A stretch of DNA of 64,000 bases, taken from positions 96,567 through 160,566 of the forward strand of contig JAUXOK010000026.1 in NCBI GenBank assembly GCA_030682255.1, read 5' to 3'. Each line of letters starts with the position of its first letter. Position 1 is the first letter of the stretch. Made by a program: the position numbers and the translations under genes. The stretch is from Bacteroidota bacterium (GTDB taxonomy: Bacteria > Bacteroidota > Bacteroidia > NS11-12g > UBA955). Under the pieces are notes generated by a model that saw only the letters and a list, made by a program, of their open reading frames with translations, did no database searches and was not told the origin of the DNA. Positions 976 to 31,406 of the stretch are shown here, piece by piece.

Positions 976-1209
976 AAAATATAAACTCGAAGGGAAGCCT
1001 TACTCCACAATCGTCACCTCATAATTCTGAGGCAGAGGGCTGTTGTTTTGCAGGAGTAAGAAATTGGCAGAAGAATCGGGGTTGAAGGTAGAAGACAGGA
1101 ATTTTTGATTAATGGATTTTTTGTTACGATATGCAGCGAAATTAGATTTTGCCTGAGGCATTTGGGGGAGCTTGTTTGGTTGATGCGAATGAGAGCGTGC
1201 TTAAAAAAA

Positions 1210-1626
1210 TTAAGTTGCTACTATATTTTCATTTTCGTTTTGAATTTTCATTAATCGCTCAAGTCTTTCTTTTTCAAATCTTTCCATTGTTTTTTTGAGT
1301 TCCTCAACTTGTGCTAAATCCAAACCTTCAATTCTTGCTGTCCAATTTTCATCCTTTGTTGGTTTGGATAATTTTGTAATACAATCGTGCCAAACTGGCA
1401 AAACAGTTTTTTTAGTGGTGTCCCACCAAAACAAATCATTTGGGGTGCAGTTTAGCTCTTTGCAAATTTTACTCAAATCTTCAAAAGCAATAGACTTTTG
1501 TTTGTGATGGATTAAATTGTAGCACTTGGCTTTGGTAATATTACAATGCTTTTGAAGCCAAGCTTGAGGGTTTTTCTTGCCTTGAGATAGCAACACTTCT
1601 TTGATTTTTAGTTTAAGCATATACAA
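1210..1626 (-). CDS. XRE-family helix-turn-helix transcriptional regulator
   Basis: 138 aa. N-terminal region QAWLQKHCNITKAKCYNLIHHKQKSIAFEDLSKICKELNCTPNDLF reads like a Cro/C1 HTH; acidic, coiled-coil-like C-terminus. Confidence 0.55.
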   Translation of the reverse strand: MYMLKLKIKEVLLSQGKKNPQAWLQKHCNITKAKCYNLIHHKQKSIAFEDLSKICKELNCTPNDLFWWDTTKKTVLPVWHDCITKLSKPTKDENWTARIEGLDLAQVEELKKTMERFEKERLERLMKIQNENENIVAT

Positions 1627-1659: not shown

Positions 1660-1911
1660 ATTACGATTTATATAACATTAAGAACAATTTATAAAACTTT
1701 AAGTACTATTTATAAAACTTTAAATATGATTTATATAATTTCAGTTATTTATTATAAAATTATTATTACGATTTATAAAATATCATTCACTATTTATAAA
1801 ACTTTAGTTATTGTTTATATAACTTTAATAACAATTTATACAACTGTATTTACGAATTATACAACTTTAATTACGGTTTATAAAACTTTAATTACGATTA
1901 ATAAAATTTAA
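1660..1911. repeat. tandem array, 12 copies of a degenerate 21-bp unit (consensus about ATTACGATTTATAAAACTTTA)
   Basis: Read directly: units start at 1660, 1681, 1702 ... 1891 with exact 21-bp phase, and the core TTTATAAAACTTTA recurs. The array starts 34 bp upstream of the start codon of the minus-strand XRE gene. The 61-aa ORF 1726..1911 is an artefact of translating the repeat. Confidence 0.85.
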
Positions 1912-2400: not shown

Positions 2401-2535
2401 CAATTTATAAATGTTTTTTTGTGTGGCATATAAAACTAAGCTTATATGAATTACAAAAACATCAAAGAAGAGGAAGTGGAAAACAAAGAGGAGTCTGATT
2501 TTTTTAAGACTTCCGACACCCCCGAAACCACAGAC

Positions 2536-2850
2536 AAGGCTAACAGCCCAGCCCTGAAAGGGCGATATAACATAAGGCTGGGCATAGCTCCTCCGAAAGC
2601 CCTGAAAGGGCGACATAACCTAAGGATGGGCATAGCCCTTCCGAACCTAAGCATAGGCGCAGCCCTTCCGAACATAAGCCTAGGCATAACTCCTCCGAAA
2701 GCCCTGAAAGGGCGACATAACTTAAGGATAGGCGCAGCCCTTCCGAACTTAAGCATGGGCATAGCTCCTCCGAAAGCCCTGAAAGGGCGATATAACTTAA
2801 GGTTGGGCATAGCCCTTCCGAACCTAATTATGGGCATAGCCCTTCCGAAT
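2536..2850. repeat. REP/BIME-like cluster: 4 copies of the palindrome GCCCTGAAAGGGC alternating with GGGCATAGCCCTTCCGAA-type modules
   Basis: Palindromes at about 2551, 2599, 2701 and 2776, separated by recurring modules (CGAYATAACYTAAGGNTGGGCATAGCYCCTCCGAA). Lies immediately 5' of the RAYT gene. The two overlapping 137-aa ORFs here are repeat translations. Confidence 0.75.
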
Positions 2851-2862
2851 AAACTATAAAAC

Positions 2863-3315
2863 ATGGGTCAATCACTAGTTCAAAATTATATACATATCGT
2901 ATTCAGCACAAAGTACAGGCAGCCTCTCATACATCCACCTATAGAGCAAGAACTTCACGCTTATTTGGGCGGAATATGTAATCGTTTAGAATGTCAGTCT
3001 ATTATTGTAGGTGGCTATACAGACCATATTCACATCCTTTGCAAGCTCTCAAAAAAAATTGCTTTGATGAAATTGGTAGAAGAAGTAAAATCTCATTCAT
3101 CTAAATGGATAAAAACAAAAGGCGATGATTACCGCAATTTTTACTGGCAAGATGGTTATGGCGCTTTTTCGGTCAATCCTTCCGAAGTAGATGTCGTAAT
3201 TAATTACATAGCCAATCAACACCAACATCACAGCAAGAAAACCTTTAAAGGCGAATATATAGCATTTTTAGAAAAGTATCAGGTTGAATATGATGAACGC
3301 TATGTTTGGGACTGA
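2863..3315 (+). CDS. IS200/IS605-family Y1 (HUH) transposase of the REP-associated tyrosine transposase (RAYT / TnpA_REP) type
   Basis: 150 aa; HUH motif DHIHIL and a C-terminal tyrosine motif NYIANQ, the size expected for TnpA_REP. Flanked on both sides by REP-like palindromes. Confidence 0.8.
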   Translation: MGQSLVQNYIHIVFSTKYRQPLIHPPIEQELHAYLGGICNRLECQSIIVGGYTDHIHILCKLSKKIALMKLVEEVKSHSSKWIKTKGDDYRNFYWQDGYGAFSVNPSEVDVVINYIANQHQHHSKKTFKGEYIAFLEKYQVEYDERYVWD

Positions 3316-3339
3316 TACATAAAGTGGGTGAAGCCACCC

Positions 3340-3560
3340 CTATGTATCAGGGCGGGCTTCACCCATCCTTAGCATATATCGCCCCTATGGGGCTAATAGG
3401 CAACCAAGCCCTGAAAGGGCGATATATGCTAAGGATGGGCACAGCCCTTCCGATAGCCCTGAAAGGGCGATATAACACAACAACGCCCGTTCCAAAACAT
3501 CACATGAATGCACAAATGGTTCTATGCGCCCCTTGACCGAAGTCTCGGCTAAGCCGAGAC
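3340..3560. repeat. REP/BIME-like cluster 3' of the RAYT gene (2 GCCCTGAAAGGGC palindromes, one GCCCCTATGGGGC palindrome, one GTCTCGG-N5-CCGAGAC hairpin)
   Basis: Palindromes at about 3381, 3408 and 3456 with the same CGATATA...TAAGGATGGGCACAGCCCTTCCGA modules as the left cluster; extra hairpin at 3542-3560. The 76-aa ORF 3306..3536 is a repeat translation. Confidence 0.7.
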
Positions 3561-10361: not shown

Positions 10362-10490
10362 TTATGGTTAATGGTGTCCCGCATGAAAAATGCGGGAGGG
10401 TTAATAGTGTAAGGGTTAATGGTTTATTGGTTAATGTTGTCCCGCATGAAAACTGCGGGATAGTGATTAGGAAGTAGGGGGAAGAAAATT
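10362..10490. repeat. gene-less copy of the GGTTAATGG-rich repeat element, containing two copies of the hairpin GTCCCGCATGAAAAaTGCGGGA
   Basis: gggttaggttatGGTTAATGGtgtCCCGCATgaaaaATGCGGGagGGTTAATAGTGTAAGGGTTAATGGtttattGGTTAATGttgtCCCGCATgaaaacTGCGGGatagtgattaggAAGTAGGGGGAAG. It abuts the Crp gene stop codon. Confidence 0.55.
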
Positions 10491-12528: not shown

Positions 12529-13530
12529 TCAATTAAACTTTTTACTTTTCAATACTTTGCCATTTTTATCTTTAATCAACCAAACACCAATTGGTTCACA
12601 ATAGATAGAATTACCACATGTAAAATGAATCACATCATTTTCATTGCTTGAGTGTTTATGAACTATTGGTTTAAAACAAGCAATCATGACATCTTGGGTT
12701 TGAGGATTGTAATAATTCCATGTATCTTTTGCTAAATAATTGTTATACTCAATTAGCCTTAATAAACTCCCAAAATCGAAACTATCTTTTTGTAAATTAA
12801 TTTCAATAAAAGTCTTTATGAAATAAGGACTAATAAAAGTCTTTAAAAAGTCAAATTCCATTCGACTTGAAAAGCCTTCAATAATCAAAAGGCCAGAACT
12901 ATCAAAAGTTTTTAATCGAAAGGTGCTATCATTAATTTTTTGACAAGTAAATTCAATTGATGGTATTTTTGTTTGATAATATTTCGTGTAAGAATAATAA
13001 CTGCTTTCAAAATAGCCTTTTTTCTCCGACAACAAAAAAGTATCACTATTGACTATTTGATACAATAAAACATTGTTGTTTTTATTAAGTCTCTCAAAAT
13101 TTTCAGATGTTACTGGAATTATTTCAAATTGACTGTTTTGATTTTTAACTTTTAAGACAAAGTCATTTTGATCATTTAATGTTGTAAATCTCATAGGTTC
13201 GGCATAGCGATATTCCCCTAATATTTCATACTTTATACTATCTATTAACAGTTCGGAATATCCATTGGTTCTGGCTAAAACTGAAGTAAATTTTTTCGTT
13301 CTACTTCCCAAAATTTTTTGGGCTAAAATATCCTTTATTTGAGAGTCTTTAACTACCGTTCGGGCATCGTCTATCTTGGCAAGCCAATTGGATGCAAATG
13401 TTGCATCTAGGGTACTATCGTAGGCGGTAAAAGCAGCCAATTCGTCAACAAAAATTGCGTGAAGGGTGTCGGATGTTTCGCACATATAGTCATCGCTGCT
13501 ATTATATGCTCTGATAATTTCTTTTGCCAT
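12529..13530 (-). CDS. hypothetical protein (333 aa, no recognisable domain, no signal peptide)
   Basis: Long clean ORF with an ATG start; the 21-bp repeat array lies upstream of it. Confidence 0.55.
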   Translation of the reverse strand: MAKEIIRAYNSSDDYMCETSDTLHAIFVDELAAFTAYDSTLDATFASNWLAKIDDARTVVKDSQIKDILAQKILGSRTKKFTSVLARTNGYSELLIDSIKYEILGEYRYAEPMRFTTLNDQNDFVLKVKNQNSQFEIIPVTSENFERLNKNNNVLLYQIVNSDTFLLSEKKGYFESSYYSYTKYYQTKIPSIEFTCQKINDSTFRLKTFDSSGLLIIEGFSSRMEFDFLKTFISPYFIKTFIEINLQKDSFDFGSLLRLIEYNNYLAKDTWNYYNPQTQDVMIACFKPIVHKHSSNENDVIHFTCGNSIYCEPIGVWLIKDKNGKVLKSKKFN

Positions 13531-13755
13531 AGTGATTAATATTTAATATGTTTTAATTAATACTATTGACGAGGCAACAATAAAAATATTGTGTTAGATG
13601 TAAAAAAAATTAAAATACATCTACAAACAACTGATTATCAATTAAATATTTTTTACAAGTAATAAATAGGAATTTATTGATTTCTAAAAATAGCGTTGTT
13701 ATAACTTAAAAACACTTAGTTGAACAACAAAATTGTCTAGTTGTAAATAAAAACT

Positions 13756-13944
13756 GTTTAGTTGATGTCCGTCACCGTTTTGTTAATGAACATCAACGTT
13801 TAGTTGATACCCATCACCATTTAGTTAATGCTCATCACCGTTTAGTTGATGCTCATCACCGTTTAGTTGATGCTCATCACTGTTTAGTTGATACTCATCA
13901 CCATTTAGTTGATACCCGTCACCGTTTAGTTGATGCTCGTCACC
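13756..13944. repeat. tandem array, 9 copies of a 21-bp unit GTTTAGTTGATGCTCATCACC, each containing the inverted repeat GTTGATG-N2-CATCAC(C)
   Basis: Units in exact 21-bp phase from 13756 to 13944, with point variants such as GATACCCATCACC and GATGTCCGTCACC. Sits in the 686-bp interval between two minus-strand genes, about 225 bp upstream of the start of the 12529..13530 gene. Confidence 0.85.
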
Positions 13945-14164
13945 AATTTTAAAGATTAACTAAATCCTTTGCTAGCCTTGCTAAATAAGGAATTACATCA
14001 ACTAAGTGATATTAAAAACCAACTATCTCTTAGATGGTTTTAAAACAACATTATAAATCCCTTAAAGATTGAAGATAAGATTTAAGAAATTAAAAAAATT
14101 ACCTGTATTATGATTGATAATTTTAAATAATGGTTGATTGAAAAAGAAAATTCAAAGACTGAAA

Positions 14165-14201
14165 CAAAAAATGCAAGTAAAGGTGTTTACTTGCTTTTTT
14201 A
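14165..14201 (-). terminator. rho-independent (bidirectional) terminator after the 843-aa T9SS cargo gene
   Basis: aaaaaaatGCAAGTAAAggtgtTTTACTTGCtttttt; A-run and T-run on either side. Confidence 0.65.
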
Positions 14202-14216
14202 GGAAATCAAGAGGAA

Positions 14217-16748
14217 TTATCTTAAAAGACTTATTGTGCCATTTTTAAAGTGTTTTTTTTCTTGTAAATCAACAATTGTTAATGAATACATATATACGCC
14301 CTCTTGACAAATTTGATTTTTAAAATTGCCATCCCAAAAAGGTTGTACATTGGTTATTTCAAAAATAAGTTCACCCCAACGATTGAATATTGACATTTTA
14401 ATGGACTTAGCATTACTGATAGTAGGCTGAAATACATCATTTATTCCATCATTATTAGGGCTAAATGAGTTAGGAATATACTCTACCAATTTTAAACAAG
14501 GAGTAAATTCTATTGTATCTGAATTAAAGCAATTATTTTTTTGGATTCTAACAAAATAAACACCAGGTTCAGTCACAATTATGCTGTTTTGGGTACTTCC
14601 ATTACTCCATAAATAACTTTGTGCGAACGGTGCTCTAAGCATTTGATGATTACAAAGAAAAGTATCTTTACCTATAAATATGTCAGGCTTTGGTAATTTA
14701 TTTACACTTATTGTGTCTGAGTTATAACAAAATGGATATTGAGCTTTAACCCAATAAGAACCTTTTGAATAAACATTGGTTATGGCGCCTGTATCATCAT
14801 TACTCCAAAGGTAATGTATTCCAGTAATTGGAGTTATTTTAAGTTGCACTTTATCACAAATAGTGGTATCGGGTATAATTTCAATTTTTGGAGGGGGTAT
14901 TTGATTTAGATTAATTGTATCTGATGCTTCACAATGGTTGCTTCCAGTTACCTTTACATGATACAATCCTTCTTTATCTACCATAATTGAATAGGTAGAT
15001 TCTTCTGTATTCCATTTGTAATTTTTAAACCCGATTCCAGCATCTAGTTTTTTAGTAAAAGCATTGCAGAACGTTTCGTCATCTCCAATAAACACATTTG
15101 GCACATTACCTAAACTTATTTTTATGGTGTCTGCCAAGTTGCAAAATTTGTGTTTATAGGTTAGAATATACTCACCCGGAATATCTGTATATAGCTGCTG
15201 TGTGGTATCAATTGTGTTCCAATAAAATTGAATATTTAAATTGTTGTTTTGGTCTTTAATTAAAACTTTAGTATTAGGGCATATTATTGTATCATTGCCT
15301 AAATTTGGCTTTTGTTTACTAACAATATTAATTGATGAATAAATAATTGTGTCTTTGCCATCTGGCAATGAAACAATGGCTGAAACATTAAATATACGAT
15401 AATAGGCATACAGATGTTTTACATATGGTTCAGTTGTTTGCTTGGTGTTTCCATCTCCAAAATGCCAGACTATTTTTGTAACATCTGTGTTTACAATCTT
15501 AATTAATGCAGAATCCGACAAACAAGTGGTATCAGTTACTATTTTAATGGGATAATAAATTTGAGATTGTACACAATTGGGCAAACCAACTTTTGTTTTT
15601 GTTGAATTAGTGTATGTTTTTAATGCTCTATATTCAAAATCTGTTTTTAAACCATTGCTATCAGGATTATTTATAACGCTCAAAGCTGAGTCAACAAAAC
15701 CCATTGTTGCGTATATTTTTCTATTAGGTGCCAATTGTAAACTATAAAATTGATTATAATTATTAGAATTAATTTTCAAACGGATTTTATTAACATCAAT
15801 GTTATTTTTTATTGAATCTATGGGTATTTGATAAATGCCTTTATCTGAATTTAAGTCACATGTAAAATATAAAAATTTTTCATTTGGAGAAAATTCACAA
15901 CCATAAGCAAATTCTCTTGATTTAAGACCAAGAACAATTCTTCTATAATTGCTAAACGTACCATTGGAATGGTTAAAATCTAAAAAATGTATATAACTAT
16001 AGTCAGTGTCATTCTCATGAGATCTATATTCTGTAAATGCCAAATATTTGCCATTAGATGAAAATTTCATTTGCCCAATTCCATAACTAACATGACGACC
16101 CCAATCTGTGCCATCACCATATCCAATTTTATTAGTATTCATTTTATGAATAATTGGACTAGAGATACCATTTTCTGTAAGCTTATATAAATAAATAGAA
16201 TCAGAAAAATATTTTATGGAGGCAATCCAAACATCTTGTCCATTTTGGTGATTAACAGCTGTTAGTTTTTCACTAGAGTTTTTAAAAAGAAATGTGTTCT
16301 TTTCTATTACTTTTCCTAGTCCACTGTTTAAGTTTATATCAACGATGGAATAAAATACACCATTATTTGAAATTAAAGGATTAAGATTTACATGATCTGA
16401 AGTAAATAAGTAATAAAGATTAGAGTTTCCAGGTTGTTTTACAATCAATGCAGATTGCGTACTTGATACTCCTCCTAATAATCCAAAACCATTTTCCAAC
16501 GTATCGTGATTTTTATTCCAAATAGTAATACCGTCTGTATAAAACAATAAATTTCCATTATTATCTGAAATTGATGAACTACCTTCAAAAGCGTTCATTT
16601 TTGATTTATTATGAATAGTGTCAGATAAATGATTGAAATCTATAGAAGCATTCTGACCAAAACACCAATTGTTATAATATTTTTGAGTATAAATATTATT
16701 TGCAAATATTAATAAGAACAAAGACAATATAATGTATTTTGTTTTCAT
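14217..16748 (-). CDS. large secreted protein with a T9SS type-B sorting domain (gliding motility-associated C-terminal domain, CHU_C)
   Basis: Signal peptide MKTKYIILSLFLLIFANNIYTQ; C-terminus YIPNSFSPNNDGINDVFQP...WDGNFKNQ...GVYMYSL matches the type-B CTD. Confidence 0.7.
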   Translation of the reverse strand: MKTKYIILSLFLLIFANNIYTQKYYNNWCFGQNASIDFNHLSDTIHNKSKMNAFEGSSSISDNNGNLLFYTDGITIWNKNHDTLENGFGLLGGVSSTQSALIVKQPGNSNLYYLFTSDHVNLNPLISNNGVFYSIVDINLNSGLGKVIEKNTFLFKNSSEKLTAVNHQNGQDVWIASIKYFSDSIYLYKLTENGISSPIIHKMNTNKIGYGDGTDWGRHVSYGIGQMKFSSNGKYLAFTEYRSHENDTDYSYIHFLDFNHSNGTFSNYRRIVLGLKSREFAYGCEFSPNEKFLYFTCDLNSDKGIYQIPIDSIKNNIDVNKIRLKINSNNYNQFYSLQLAPNRKIYATMGFVDSALSVINNPDSNGLKTDFEYRALKTYTNSTKTKVGLPNCVQSQIYYPIKIVTDTTCLSDSALIKIVNTDVTKIVWHFGDGNTKQTTEPYVKHLYAYYRIFNVSAIVSLPDGKDTIIYSSINIVSKQKPNLGNDTIICPNTKVLIKDQNNNLNIQFYWNTIDTTQQLYTDIPGEYILTYKHKFCNLADTIKISLGNVPNVFIGDDETFCNAFTKKLDAGIGFKNYKWNTEESTYSIMVDKEGLYHVKVTGSNHCEASDTINLNQIPPPKIEIIPDTTICDKVQLKITPITGIHYLWSNDDTGAITNVYSKGSYWVKAQYPFCYNSDTISVNKLPKPDIFIGKDTFLCNHQMLRAPFAQSYLWSNGSTQNSIIVTEPGVYFVRIQKNNCFNSDTIEFTPCLKLVEYIPNSFSPNNDGINDVFQPTISNAKSIKMSIFNRWGELIFEITNVQPFWDGNFKNQICQEGVYMYSLTIVDLQEKKHFKNGTISLLR

Positions 16749-17585: not shown

Positions 17586-17903
17586 TTATAAATTTAATTT
17601 TTTCAACAATTGCACCATCTCAATCATTAGTTTTGGAGCATTAAGAGAGCAAAAATTTATTGTATTACATTGTGTGCAATTATTTAAAACTTGTTTCCAT
17701 TCAAATGTCAATAAATAATAAGGTGTAACACCTAATTCTTTAGAAATATCATATAAACAACTTAAAGATATATCAATTTCTCCTTTTTCTATCTTCTGAA
17801 GCCAATTTTGACTCTTACCTAGCTTATTAGCTAATCCGTCTTGAGAAAAACCTTTAATGGTTCTTAAAATTCTTACATTTTCTCCTAGTTTAGTATTTAT
17901 CAT
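17586..17903 (-). CDS. XRE-family helix-turn-helix transcriptional regulator
   Basis: 105 aa; HTH region VRILRTIKGFSQDGLANKLGKSQNWLQKIEKGEIDISLSCLYDISKELGV. Lies directly upstream of, and co-oriented with, the Cys-rich protein gene. Confidence 0.6.
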   Translation of the reverse strand: MINTKLGENVRILRTIKGFSQDGLANKLGKSQNWLQKIEKGEIDISLSCLYDISKELGVTPYYLLTFEWKQVLNNCTQCNTINFCSLNAPKLMIEMVQLLKKLNL

Positions 17904-18782: not shown

Positions 18783-18857
18783 TTGGTTAAGGGTTAATGG
18801 TTAATAGTTAAGGGTTATTGGTTAAGGGTTATTAGTTAAGAGTTGGGGTTGTTAACG
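18783..18857. repeat. left GGTTAAGGG/GGTTAATGG repeat flank of the four-helix-bundle element; abuts the sdhB start codon
   Basis: ttGGTTAAGGGTTAATGGTTAATAGTTAAGGGTTATTGGTTAAGGGTTATTAGTTAAGagttgggg; overlaps the last 8 codons of the four-helix-bundle gene. Confidence 0.6.
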
Positions 18858-19269: not shown

Positions 19270-19362
19270 TCCCTAATTCTTATTAAACTAATAAACACCA
19301 TTAACTAAAACTATAAACGATTACACAATTAACCATTACACTATTAACCATTACACCATTCC
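19270..19362. repeat. right repeat flank of the four-helix-bundle element (CCATTAACC / CCATTACAC units, ending in CCATTCCCTACTT overlapping the sdhA stop codon)
   Basis: Reverse complement reads AAGTAGGGAATGGTGTAATGGTTAATAGTGTAATGGTTAATTGTGTAATCG..., the same motifs as the copies at 2311 and 10362. Confidence 0.6.
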
Positions 19363-27635: not shown

Positions 27636-27983
27636 AAGATTATAATATTTAAATTTCAATGCAAAATTAGAACTTAAGTTGAGCACAGAATGTGATATTT
27701 GTCACACAAAGTCAAAAACTGATGAAGGTCATGTAAAAGCTAGATTAGGAAAAGGAACTCATCAAATTGGTAAATATGGCCTTTCCCATAGGGCTTAACA
27801 CATCTTGAATATATTTTAATCAAAGTTAATATGGTTATCATTATTTATTCAATCCTTGATATTTTGCAAACTTTTTTAAAAAAACATAAAACAAATTCAA
27901 AAAATTAATTCCCTATTTGCGAATTCTTAAGTAAGTATCTATAAATATTTTCAGTTTTTAAAAAAATGCTTTAATATTGTCTT

Positions 27984-30900
27984 ATGAAAATAATTCTACT
28001 ATATAGCACTTTAATTATTTGTTTGTTTACAAATGCACAAAGCACTCATGTGAATGGCCCTATTGGAAGTGGAGAATTCGGAAGATCCATTACAATTTTA
28101 AGCAACGGTAATTACGTTGTTACTGATCCACTTTTTGACGATGGAACTAAAGCTGATGTAGGAGCTGCTTATCTATATAATGGGTCAACACATGCGTTGA
28201 TAAGTACACTAAAAGGTAGCACAGCAAATGATCAAGTTGGTAGTCATGGTATAATTGTCCTTTCAAATGGCAATTATTTGATTCATAGTTTCAATTGGAA
28301 CAATGGGACTGCATTTTATGCAGGTGCCGTCACTTGGGGCAGTGCAACCACGGGCGTGAGCGGTGTGGTTGGCCCTAGCAACTCTTTGGTGGGTAGCAAG
28401 GCTAATGACAGAATTGGGAATAGCGGCATTTTAGTTCTCTCTAATGGCAATTATTTGGTTTTAAGTACTGTTTGGGATAATGGGGCTGCTATAGATGCAG
28501 GAGCTGTTACTTGGGGCAGTGATGTTTTGGGCGTAACCGGAGTAGTTAGTGAGAGTAATTCCTTGGTGGGTAGCACGTCAAGTGATCAAGTGGGAAGTGG
28601 AGGAGCAACTTTACTATCCAATGGCAATTATATAGTGAATAGTCCAACTTGGGACAATGGTTCTATATCGAATGCTGGTGCCGTTACGTGGGGAAGTGGT
28701 AACTCAGGCATCAGTGGCGCAGTTAGTGCTAGCAATTCTTTGGTGGGCAGCACAGCAGATAACATTGTTGGAAACGGTGGAATAACGATCCTTACTAACA
28801 GTAATTATGTAGTTCGCAGCTCAAGATGGGATAATGGAACTGCAAATGACGTAGGAGCCGTCACTTGGGGCAACGGCACTTCAGGTATCATCGGTGCGGT
28901 TAGTGCAAGTAATTCTCTGGTTGGTAGTACCGTTAATGACCAAGTGGGAAGTGGTTTTATAATCGCTCTTTCCAACGGCAATTATGTAGTAAATAGCCCC
29001 TTTTGGGACAATGGGGCAATAAGCAATGTCGGAGCCGTCACTTGGGGCAATGGAACTACCGGCATTAGTGGTTTAGTTAGTGCTAGCAACTCTCTAGTGG
29101 GAAGTTTGGCAAATGATCAAGTTGGAATTGTGATTTCAACGGCACTCTCCAATGGTAATTATGTGGTTCGCAGCTACAACTGGGATAATGGGGCCGCAAG
29201 CAATGCAGGAGCAGTTACATGGGGCAATGGCACTTCGGGTATTACAGGTGCTGTTAGTGCAAGTAATTCATTAGTGGGAAGCACGGCTAACGATCAAGTG
29301 GGCATAAATGGTATAACTGCCCTTTCAAATGGCAATTATGTAGTTATTAGCCGACAATGGGACAACGGTGCTGCAACAGACGCAGGCGCTGTCACATGGG
29401 GCAATGGCACTTCAGGCATAAGCGGTGTAATTAGCTCAAGCAATTCTTTGGTGGGTAGCTCGGCTAGTGACCAAGTTGGCATTAATGGTGTAGCGGTTCT
29501 CTCCAATAGTAATTATGTAGTTATCAGCCCCAATTGGAACAATGGAGCTGCAACGAACGCAGGTGCCGTCACGTGGGGCAATGGCACTTCAGGTATCAGC
29601 GGTGTGGTTAGTACTAGCAATTCACTAGTAGGTAGCACAACAAATAACCTAGTTGGCAGTAATGGGATAACCGCTCTATCTAATGGCAATTATTTAGTTA
29701 TGAGCCCTTCTTGGGACTATGGAACTTCAACTGACTTAGGAGCTGTTACATGGAGTAATGGCACCACGGGTATCAGCGGTGTAGTTAGTGCCAGCAATTC
29801 TTTGGTGGGTAGCTCTGCTCTTGATCAAGTGGGTGTTAATGGTATTTCATTGCTTTCCAATGGCAATTATGTGGTTCGCAGTAACAATTGGGACAATGGG
29901 GCTGTAACAAATGCAGGAGCCGTCACTTGGGGTAATAGCAATTCGGGAATTAGCGGTGCTGTTAGCGCTAGCAATTCTTTGGTGGGCAGTAAGGTTGGTG
30001 ACCAAGTTGGCAGTTCAGGTATAACAGTCCTCTCCAATGGCAACTATGTGGTAAATAGCTCAAATTGGGACAATGGGACCGCAATTCAGGCAGGAGCTGT
30101 GACATGGGGAAATGGCAACACAGGCATCAGCGGTGTGGTTAGTGTCAGCAACTCATTGGTAGGGGGAACCGCTAATAACTTCGTAGGAAATGGCAGTGTA
30201 ATTGCCCTTGCAAATGGCAATTACGTAGTTCGAAGTTTCAATTGGGACAATGGGGCTGTATCAGACGTAGGTGCTATCACTTGGGGCAGTGGTACTAAGG
30301 GTATTAGTGGGGTAGTTAGTGAGAGCAATTCTCTTATTGGAAGCACCGCTAACAATTTAGTGGGAAGCGCTAGCTTTAACATCTTCCCTAATGGTTATTT
30401 TGTGGTTCGCAATCCCAACTGGGACAATGGTACTGCAACGGACGCAGGAGCATTCAGTTTGGGCAATGAAAGCAAAGCATTGACAGGAGTCGTAAATTCC
30501 TGCAACAGTGTATTAGGAAATGCAGCTAATGGCGGCAGCAAAATGATTTCTGCTTTCAATACTGTTCATTCTTATCTTTTGGTAGGCAGACCTGGCGATA
30601 ATATCTTAACCATTTTCAATCCTATTGGTCAGCCTCTTGCTGTGCATTTGGATAGCACTTCAGCAAATATTGAAGGAAACACTGCTGTGCCCCTAGTAAA
30701 CAATGCTTGTCGTATTATTGCTTCCATACAAGCCAATGGGGTCAATCCTGTAATGGATTTGGTGCCGGCAAAAGTTTGGATAGAAACTAATCAAACAGAT
30801 AGTTTTGTTAAACGTCATTTTGAAATCACGCCTATAGTAAACAATAATAATGCAACAGCAAAAGTGATCTTATATTTCACCCAATCAGAATTTGATGATT

Positions 30901-31406
30901 TTAATGCTGTAAACACTAAAAAACTTCCTACTTCAGGCTCTGATGCTCAAGGAAAATCTAATTTGCGTATTATCAAAAGAGCGGGCAATAGCATTAATAA
31001 CACTGGTTTGCCAGGCTCTTATATTGGAGCTGTGAGCACCATCGATCCTCCTGATAGCAACATAGTTTTTAATTCGCAACTAAGCCGTTGGGAAGTGAGT
31101 TTTGACGTATTAGGATTTAGTGGCTTTTTTGTTAATACAGGAAACAAAGTTACTTCTTTAACAGAGCTCCCCAAAAATTTAAACAATGTAGAACTATTTC
31201 CTAATCCTACCAATGGAATCCTAAATATACTTAGCCATTATAACCAAGATTTTAAACTCAAATTAATGGATATTTCAGGCAAACTTTTAATTGAAAAAAC
31301 CTTTCAAGGAAATGGAACTCATCTATTAGATTTAAGTAATTTTTTGCCAGGCATCTACTTAGTTAAACTAAGTACCGGTGAAACCTTTAAGGTGATTAAA
31401 CAGTAA
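27984..31406 (+). CDS. 1140-aa repetitive cell-surface protein with a T9SS type-A sorting domain (Por_Secre_tail)
   Basis: Signal peptide MKIILLYSTLIICLFTNAQS; about 18-20 tandem copies of a roughly 61-aa unit (SNSLVGS.anDQVGsgGItaLSNGNYVV.Sp.WDNGaa.naGAVTWGNGTSGISGvVSa); C-terminus LFPNPTNGILNI...GIYLVKLSTGETFKVIKQ. Confidence 0.7.
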   Translation: MKIILLYSTLIICLFTNAQSTHVNGPIGSGEFGRSITILSNGNYVVTDPLFDDGTKADVGAAYLYNGSTHALISTLKGSTANDQVGSHGIIVLSNGNYLIHSFNWNNGTAFYAGAVTWGSATTGVSGVVGPSNSLVGSKANDRIGNSGILVLSNGNYLVLSTVWDNGAAIDAGAVTWGSDVLGVTGVVSESNSLVGSTSSDQVGSGGATLLSNGNYIVNSPTWDNGSISNAGAVTWGSGNSGISGAVSASNSLVGSTADNIVGNGGITILTNSNYVVRSSRWDNGTANDVGAVTWGNGTSGIIGAVSASNSLVGSTVNDQVGSGFIIALSNGNYVVNSPFWDNGAISNVGAVTWGNGTTGISGLVSASNSLVGSLANDQVGIVISTALSNGNYVVRSYNWDNGAASNAGAVTWGNGTSGITGAVSASNSLVGSTANDQVGINGITALSNGNYVVISRQWDNGAATDAGAVTWGNGTSGISGVISSSNSLVGSSASDQVGINGVAVLSNSNYVVISPNWNNGAATNAGAVTWGNGTSGISGVVSTSNSLVGSTTNNLVGSNGITALSNGNYLVMSPSWDYGTSTDLGAVTWSNGTTGISGVVSASNSLVGSSALDQVGVNGISLLSNGNYVVRSNNWDNGAVTNAGAVTWGNSNSGISGAVSASNSLVGSKVGDQVGSSGITVLSNGNYVVNSSNWDNGTAIQAGAVTWGNGNTGISGVVSVSNSLVGGTANNFVGNGSVIALANGNYVVRSFNWDNGAVSDVGAITWGSGTKGISGVVSESNSLIGSTANNLVGSASFNIFPNGYFVVRNPNWDNGTATDAGAFSLGNESKALTGVVNSCNSVLGNAANGGSKMISAFNTVHSYLLVGRPGDNILTIFNPIGQPLAVHLDSTSANIEGNTAVPLVNNACRIIASIQANGVNPVMDLVPAKVWIETNQTDSFVKRHFEITPIVNNNNATAKVILYFTQSEFDDFNAVNTKKLPTSGSDAQGKSNLRIIKRAGNSINNTGLPGSYIGAVSTIDPPDSNIVFNSQLSRWEVSFDVLGFSGFFVNTGNKVTSLTELPKNLNNVELFPNPTNGILNILSHYNQDFKLKLMDISGKLLIEKTFQGNGTHLLDLSNFLPGIYLVKLSTGETFKVIKQ
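28230..30480. repeat. intragenic tandem DNA repeat, period about 183 bp (encodes the roughly 61-aa protein repeats)
   Basis: Recurring tcttt(g)gtgggtagcac...ggcaattatgt...tgggacaatgg...gccgtcacttggggcaatggcacttcaggtatcagcggtg blocks across this interval. Confidence 0.7.

Follow-up and report, generated by a model that had tools for sequence, protein, structure and literature searches.

A 21-bp-period repeat array is a conserved 5' element of an unnamed gene family in Bacteroidota and Ignavibacteriota

In the 64,000-nucleotide stretch of a Bacteroidota metagenome-assembled genome (MAG; G+C content 33.7%) analyzed here, referred to as the window, nine 21-bp repeat units lie upstream of a minus-strand open reading frame (ORF) of 333 amino acids. 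This array, termed array 1, is the conserved cis-element found 5' of the gene in a module that has no name and is widespread among Bacteroidota and Ignavibacteriota. The ORF behind it is a recombinant hybrid, and a second array of the same period, array 2, precedes a helix-turn-helix (HTH) regulator gene of the HTH_26 type elsewhere in the window. We tentatively read the element as a helically phased, fast-evolving array of DNA binding sites that would control the downstream gene, an inferred mechanism that we consider quite possible, though short of probable.

The association of array and gene was followed across loci that encode members of the family to which the N-terminus of the 333-aa ORF belongs. 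These loci were gathered with a closer subset of the family; the broad alignment was too diverse. A 21-bp array is located upstream of the genes for P0003 and P0004, two proteins that match the beginning of the ORF. All genome loci with upstream DNA (L008-L011, including Epilithonimonas hungarica DSM 19684) carry an array upstream of the family gene; L012 has no upstream DNA and lies outside this count. E. hungarica DSM 19684 (NZ_FNBH01000001, about 537185-544075) is the sole cultured carrier that the searches turned up, and its array is located 30 nt upstream of the gene. Tandem Repeats Finder (TRF) detected an array at 10 of the 11 metagenome loci with upstream DNA, and arrays are also present at L038 and at an Ignavibacteriae locus whose protein is 29% identical. 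When self-identity at a lag of 21 nt was recorded, the highest value of the whole locus fell upstream of the gene, at a distance of 20-550 bp, for 21 of 22 distinct loci, with maxima of 0.52-0.90 compared to a background of 0.30 ± 0.06; the exception, L037, encodes a short-form member. Within the window, lag-21 self-identity exceeds 0.55 at just two places, which are arrays 1 and 2. This non-coding element is defined by its period of exactly 21 bp and not by its sequence, and it is tied to one unnamed family down to 29% identity and in two phyla. No report of such an element emerged from a literature search on 21-bp repeats in Bacteroidetes or Flavobacterium.

No conserved protein-coding neighbor was found at the family loci, and no recombinase is linked to them. 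The contexts are chromosomal and vary between type IX secretion cargo, restriction or abortive infection (Abi) genes and housekeeping genes, with Mrr and AbiC (L003), HsdR and PDDEXK (L008), HNH (L017) and MvaI_BcnI (L035) as neighbors of the defense type. Short contigs are common among carriers of the family or the HTH_26 gene (L001, L003, L004-L006, L042, L043) and several carrier contigs end at or near the array, those of L001, L042 and L043 inside it. The arrays probably break short-read assemblies, which may explain the frequent short contigs at these loci, and the family is therefore likely under-sampled in MAGs.

The family protein consists of two domains, an N-terminal bundle of long helices and a C-terminal jelly-roll. 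It is cytoplasmic and acidic (median isoelectric point 5.1) and typically measures 215-245 or 305-330 amino acids. A profile of the 216-residue N-terminal domain matched at least 904 clusters (50% identity) at E-values up to 1e-3, and 165 clusters at E-values up to 1e-30. No match was found to Pfam, NCBIfam, PHROG, PADLOC or PDB sequences and no source gives the family a name; its fold is predicted with confidence, without a match to a known fold. Neither a DNA-binding fold, including winged-helix, ribbon-helix-helix (RHH) or Rep signatures or folds, nor a ToxN/AbiQ signature or fold was detected in the protein. No viral contigs carrying the family were found, and at least two copies per genome were seen for L011 and L012.

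Array 1 is located in a 686-bp interval between two minus-strand ORFs, the 333-aa ORF at 12529-13530 and an ORF with a Pfam CHU_C match at 14217-16748. In window coordinates, the interval contains the following features:

13756-13944, minus strand: core array of nine 21-bp units in exact phase (TRF, register table, motif count).
13693-13755, minus strand: about three decayed units in the same 21-bp phase, gene-ward of the core (10-12 of 21 consensus matches; the direct-repeat family extends to 13695).
13531-13692, minus strand: AT-rich spacer from array to ATG, without recognizable promoter or terminator.
13997-14011, plus strand: inverted partial unit ATCAACTAAGTGATA, 53 bp beyond the distal end of the array (inverted repeats I1/I5).
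14173-14194, minus strand: intrinsic terminator belonging to the CHU_C (type IX secretion) gene upstream, forming the distal edge of the regulatory interval (terminator scan, inverted repeat I9).

For 13756-13944, TRF reported a period of 21, 9.0 copies, 83% matches and 0% indels with the consensus GTTTAGTTGATGCTCATCACC; on the strand of the gene the unit reads GGTGATGAGCATCAACTAAAC. Together with the register layout, this bears out the nine exact-phase units described in a first-pass annotation of the window, and the ORF coordinates agree with the 686-bp interval and the array-to-ATG distance of ~225 bp given there. The distance is 225 bp from the core array and 163 bp when the decayed units are included. 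One of the nine units (13840-13860) matches the consensus exactly and the other eight deviate at 1-5 positions. The 18-nt core of the unit, allowing up to 3 mismatches, occurs eight times in the 64 kb, always within array 1, where shuffles expect 0.13 occurrences. The lone inverted unit at 13997-14011 is probably a vestige of the distal inverted arm known from other loci. The units abut head to tail without spacers, and an array of clustered regularly interspaced short palindromic repeats (CRISPR) was ruled out by the lack of unique spacers separating them.

Each unit had further been thought to carry an inverted repeat in the shape of a dimeric operator. The palindrome is in fact TGATG-N2-CATCA (5+5) and is perfect in two of the nine units (p=0.09 versus shuffled units). 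Dyad symmetry is not conserved in the homologous arrays (combined p 0.96 across 22 arrays), and the units are asymmetric. As the per-unit palindrome is neither significant nor conserved, the argument for a dimeric operator loses its support.

In the spacer between array and ATG, sigma-70-type promoter matches occur at chance level, and a strict Bacteroidetes TAnnTTTG box was not found between array and ATG in any locus. Inspection of the last 130 nt by eye revealed just a loose TTAAC...TATAAATA pattern. The window spacer (13531-13692) contains no terminator or terminator-like hairpin, and such a hairpin separates array and gene in 1 of 18 loci. Rfam searches of the window and six loci at the gathering threshold returned no family; a permissive scan of the interval gave sub-threshold C/D-box look-alikes alone, caused by the GTGATGA within the unit. 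Both strands of array 1 fold better than shuffles (z -3.7 and -2.6), which is uninformative because any repeat does so.

A search of 5.8 billion proteins with the 333-aa ORF retrieved three relatives besides the ORF itself, namely P0002, P0003 and P0004, and these relate to two different parts of it:

13312-13530, minus strand: codons 1-73, N-terminal fragment of the array-linked helical-bundle and jelly-roll family (identity to P0003/P0004, family hidden Markov model).
12529-13317, minus strand: codons about 72-333, C-terminal body of a P0002-like protein (BLASTP to P0002).

Residues 1-73 share 68-74% identity with the N-termini of P0003 and P0004 (314 and 319 amino acids), and the family hidden Markov model (HMM) matches the ORF at positions 1-73 (E 1.6e-27). 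Residues about 72-333 are 63% identical to residues about 170-417 of P0002 (417 amino acids). The ORF is therefore an in-frame hybrid, in which the opening 73 codons come from a P0003/P0004-type gene and are joined to a P0002-type body. Among the 150 best matches of the 216-residue domain profile, the window ORF is the only one confined to the first third (positions 1-73); the other listed matches cover the domain body, nearly all of them from about 1 to 216, and the full domain is missing from the window ORF. The P0002-like source of the C-terminal part is a nearly unique protein, unrelated to the array-linked family. P0002 contains a GldM-like immunoglobulin domain (residues 32-119) and, on a reading of its sequence, an N-terminus resembling a signal peptide; the window ORF has neither region. 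P0002 is followed by an AIM24 gene, as is the window ORF, and has no array upstream. The same 333-aa ORF is present in an independent Logan assembly, in a contig that ends inside the array.

Recombination has thus exchanged everything beyond about codon 73 of the family gene for the last 260 codons of an unrelated, P0002-like gene, and array and leader would now drive an in-frame hybrid devoid of the signal peptide of the source protein. The hybrid is probably non-functional. The earlier description of the ORF as an orphan without recognizable domain holds insofar as no Pfam, NCBIfam, PHROG or PADLOC match was found, but the ORF joins two pieces with known relatives and should be annotated as a recombinant hybrid, not as a new protein type. 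The notion of a decayed gene fragment, also raised at that time, applies in part, since the ORF keeps only the first 73 codons of the family. A structure prediction as suggested there was run with AlphaFold2 (AF2) and yielded a predicted local distance difference test (pLDDT) score of 40.7; the model is uninformative because the alignment is shallow.

The second array of the window is found in the following arrangement:

1662-1911, minus strand: array 2 with 12 copies of a 21-bp unit, the nearest of them 36 bp upstream of the HTH_26 gene (TRF, lag-21 peak).
1210-1626, minus strand: Cro/C1-type HTH_26 regulator gene, 138 amino acids, candidate array-binding protein (Pfam HTH_26, E 7e-12).
1009-1098, minus strand: probable C-terminal remnant of a family protein (~30 residues), directly behind the HTH gene (tblastn, blastp).

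Homologues of the HTH_26 gene were fetched from three further distinct loci on five contigs (L039/40, L041, L042/43), and all of them are preceded by a 21-bp array that ends 18-42 nt before the start codon. The gene after the HTH gene at L039 encodes a 316-aa protein that is distantly related to the family (hhalign probability 75%, E 2.5e-5). The window likewise probably retains the C-terminus of a family member within 200 bp after its HTH_26 gene: the remnant at 1009-1098 aligns with residues 289-318 of P0029 in tblastn (50% over 30 residues, E 4e-4) and reaches an E-value of 9e-5 in blastp, where 8 of the 18 listed matches align C-end to C-end; the match of the family HMM is weak (E 1.1). 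The charged tail of the HTH_26 protein is probably a coiled coil, as read from the sequence and not computed.

Arrays 1 and 2 are unrelated in sequence, as the first-pass annotation had stated when it reported the second array and proposed a common cause for both. This proposal is confirmed in that both are of the kind of array that precedes one gene family and an HTH_26 regulator subfamily. The two arrays are the same class of element, tied to the same pair of gene families, and the module is damaged in the window, where array 1 fronts the hybrid ORF and array 2 fronts the HTH gene followed by the probable family remnant. The XRE-like ORF nearest to array 1 (17586-17903, minus strand, 105 amino acids) lies 3.6 kb upstream, past the CHU_C gene and a Cys-rich 212-aa ORF, and is weakly similar to the HTH protein of L025 (E 0.0025).

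If the array acts as DNA, it would represent a run of asymmetric binding sites two helical turns apart, so that one face of the helix would present all of them. A regulator that binds cooperatively would then occupy the array and control transcription of the gene directly downstream. The best candidate for the binder would be a Cro/C1-type HTH protein with an oligomerizing tail, like the HTH_26 protein behind array 2; proteins of this type are the leading candidates because arrays precede them and an operon with a family member is possible. A role at the DNA level is favored because the orientation of the arrays flips, arms can stand head-to-head, no reading frame is shared, stops interrupt the sense frames, no Rfam family matches and hardly any terminators are present, and the occurrence of the same array type before HTH genes points to operators.

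Several observations weigh against an array of binding sites. For most family loci, no HTH gene was found at a distance of up to 2.5-3 kb, and since arrays 1 and 2 are unrelated in sequence, one regulator cannot serve both. The units of the 22 arrays have no conserved dyad symmetry, and such a lack is unusual for sites of Cro/C1 dimers. No DNA-binding fold was detected in the family protein, which is acidic, and neither the sigma-70 scan nor the TAnnTTTG search could place a promoter. Just 30-60 nt separate the array from the ATG at L009 and L038, and at least part of it may therefore be transcribed. Finally, inheritance together with unit-wise turnover could also keep the period constant, without selection on helical phase.

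Fast turnover by gain, loss, conversion and inversion of units would tune or switch the control exerted by such a binding-site array. The unit sequences range from clearly related to unrecognizable. All arrays have a period of 21, and in many cases a 42-bp super-period is present as well. Array 1 is 62% identical to the L035 array over 181 nt (E 6.5e-15) in the same orientation relative to the gene, and the arrays of L004, L018, L020 and L021 are mutually related. Relative to the gene, the orientation is inverted compared to the majority in L008/L013 and in L014, and probably also in L024, judging by one weak 62-nt link to L014. Two arms stand head-to-head in L011, L015, L025-L034 and L038. 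The comparison of copy number among strains proposed by the first-pass annotation revealed 19 versus 15 units between near-identical loci with flanks 98.6% identical.

Ten contigs encoding one identical protein (P0164, L025-L034) carry three mosaic array haplotypes in two left-hand contexts. The haplotype breakpoints lie inside the array, and L030 is a recombinant that combines the two array types, with its junction at the center of dyad symmetry. An 82-aa HTH_3/HTH_31 gene is located just upstream of the array in one haplotype group; another group does not have it, and there a type IX secretion cargo gene abuts the array. In an Epilithonimonas-type clade, the array cannot be aligned although the gene and an upstream block of ~500 nt are 74-78% identical. 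This AT-rich, non-coding block of 450-570 nt (L009 2175-2740, L010 2161-2732, L023 1853-2314) is as conserved as the family gene, has no conserved ORF and may hold a promoter, a leader or an unrecognized RNA. No alternative orientations were seen at any single locus in the assemblies compared (L025-L034, L008/L013). Of the two mechanisms first suggested for the arrays, a regulator array is still the best reading, while a recombinational switch finds neither a recombinase nearby nor alternative orientations at one locus.

The same turnover could be that of a recombination substrate or selfish satellite without regulatory role, in which slippage and conversion maintain the arrays and the portable homology moves or swaps the gene; the chimera and the remnant of the window would then be by-products of such recombination. 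Identical proteins in two left-hand contexts with a breakpoint inside the array, the L030 junction at the dyad center, variable copy number, the rearrangement of both family copies in the window and the frequent ending of contigs at arrays are all consistent with this scenario. We nevertheless regard it as possible but unlikely. The fusion junction of the window is located within the coding sequence (about codon 73) and not in the array, and the arrays keep both their place just ahead of the gene and their 21-bp period as protein identity drops from 100% to 29% and in two phyla, where loss or period drift would be expected of a neutral repeat. Moreover, the same arrangement is found before an unrelated HTH gene family and no recombinase is linked.

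Alternatively, array and family protein might form a self-contained, undescribed two-component system in which the repeat, as DNA or transcript, is the direct partner of the protein, for example as a scaffold for protein assembly or as an antitoxin-like RNA. We judge this unlikely. If true, the strict 21-nt period would reflect the geometry of a protein-nucleic acid complex, and the system would exist in hundreds of Bacteroidota and Ignavibacteriota lineages, sometimes under an HTH_26 regulator.

A partner made of RNA, similar to type III toxin-antitoxin systems, would require the array to be co-transcribed and the repeats to serve as inhibitor, sponge or leader for the protein. The tandem array straight upstream of a solitary accessory gene matches the layout reportedly typical of ToxIN-type loci, and some family loci adjoin restriction or abortive-infection genes (L003, L008, L017, L035). 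The array is probably part of the transcript at L009 and L038, most arrays that can be linked by sequence share a purine-rich strand in sense orientation, and head-to-head arms would form long hairpins, with the window array folding better than shuffles (z -3.7). However, both strands beat shuffles, as those of any repeat would, and there is no Rfam match. The inverted orientation in L008/L013, L014 and probably L024 despite intact genes, the 17 of 18 loci in which array and gene follow each other without a terminator in between, and the same array type standing before HTH genes also argue against an RNA partner. In addition, the unit measures 21 nt in up to 19 copies, compared to 34-45 nt and 2-6 copies in known systems, and the protein has no ToxN/AbiQ signature or fold. 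Taken together, such a partner seems rather unlikely.

Plasmid iterons and parC-type centromeres contain direct repeats of 17-22 bp at about two-turn spacing. If the array were the partition site or iteron-type replication origin of an integrated element, and the protein encoded downstream its initiator or centromere-binding protein, this would account for the spacing of the direct repeats, the inverted copies nearby and the adjacent AT-rich stretch. Still, it is very unlikely: the acidic protein shows no signature or fold of the winged-helix, RHH or Rep type, no nucleoside triphosphatase (NTPase) or other conserved partner gene is present, the loci lie in varied chromosomal surroundings and number at least two in a genome (L011, L012), and viral contigs were not found. 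Within 13531-14216, no match to the DnaA box TTATCCACA with up to one mismatch was detected; the spacer there is AT-rich, but so is the whole genome at 34% G+C.

That the array encodes a heptad-repeat (7-residue) peptide or protein is most improbable: 21 bp equal 7 codons, at least one frame is free of stops in every array, the L004 array translates into a coiled-coil-like AENIKET repeat and an ORF with an ATG start covers the array in L008/L013. By our own estimate, however, chance alone would give a stop-free frame in a 21-nt repeat. The sole open frame of the window runs antisense to the gene without any ATG, GTG or TTG to start it, and two stops interrupt the sense frame. A stop is also present in the L004 frame and, in the same register, in the related L035 unit. 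Homologous arrays share no frame and flip in orientation, and unit variation has no third-position pattern (stops and per-phase entropy, 15 arrays). Translation of all six frames for the window, L003 and L004 gave no shared frame and no start in the window, and a coding array was rejected.

Promoter and regulatory logic in Bacteroidota are poorly charted, and the arrays offer a tractable case for the working and evolution of helically phased site arrays in this phylum. For a family of at least 904 protein clusters, they also provide a testable partner or context.

Other repeats of the window were noted apart from the 21-bp arrays. In the region 2446-3315, GC-rich palindromic arrays resembling repetitive extragenic palindromic (REP) elements (periods 27, 48, 75 and 102; 2550-2849) are located directly upstream of an ORF for a Y1 transposase of the IS200-like or REP-associated tyrosine transposase (RAYT) type (2863-3315, plus strand), with further copies of this repeat behind the ORF at 3306-3536; L002 likewise begins with a Y1_Tnp gene. 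Short intergenic runs of GGTTAA(T/G)GG-type heptamers occur in four places (2322-2357, 10397-10440, 18785-18844 and, as the reverse complement, 19316-19360), and copies of a hairpin-like motif, CCCGCATGAAAA.TGCGGGA, border the one at 10397. Tandem repeats of 177/354 bp at 28801-30160 lie inside one 1143-codon open frame (27975-31403, plus strand) and are part of a repeat-domain protein, not a non-coding array.

Compared with known systems, the element works most like an operator or upstream activating sequence (UAS) array, or like iterons, and its layout resembles type III toxin-antitoxin loci. With Cro/C1 (XRE) operator arrays it shares repeated sites immediately 5' of a gene and integral helical turns apart, and an HTH gene adjoins the sites at array 2, at the HTH_26 homologue loci and at L025-type loci. 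It differs from them by 9-19 sites instead of 2-6, by asymmetric units, by rapid sequence divergence with the period kept, by variable orientation and possible head-to-head arms, and by the lack of an adjoining regulator gene at array 1 and at most family loci. Type III toxin-antitoxin systems (ToxIN, CptIN, TenpIN, AbiQ) have in common with it a direct-repeat array upstream of a solitary gene (a position held in 21 of 22 loci), variable contexts that sometimes are defense islands, and a varying repeat number. Here, however, the unit is 21 nt and not 34-45 nt, copies reach 19, orientation is not fixed, no terminator stands between repeats and gene (a hairpin in 1 of 18 loci), and in place of a ToxN/AbiQ endoribonuclease the gene encodes a helical bundle with jelly-roll. 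Plasmid iterons and parC/tubC centromeres likewise consist of ~20-bp direct repeats in helical phase with inverted copies and an AT-rich flank upstream of a gene, whereas the arrays described here are chromosomal and multi-copy, with no Rep, ParR or TubR-like protein, NTPase partner or, in the window interval, DnaA boxes. As in contingency loci and promoter-proximal variable-number tandem repeats, the copy number of the upstream repeat differs between near-identical strains; in contrast to these, the 21-bp unit is long, copy changes keep helical phase instead of altering promoter spacing, and the arrays stay with a single gene family beyond the limits of one phylum.

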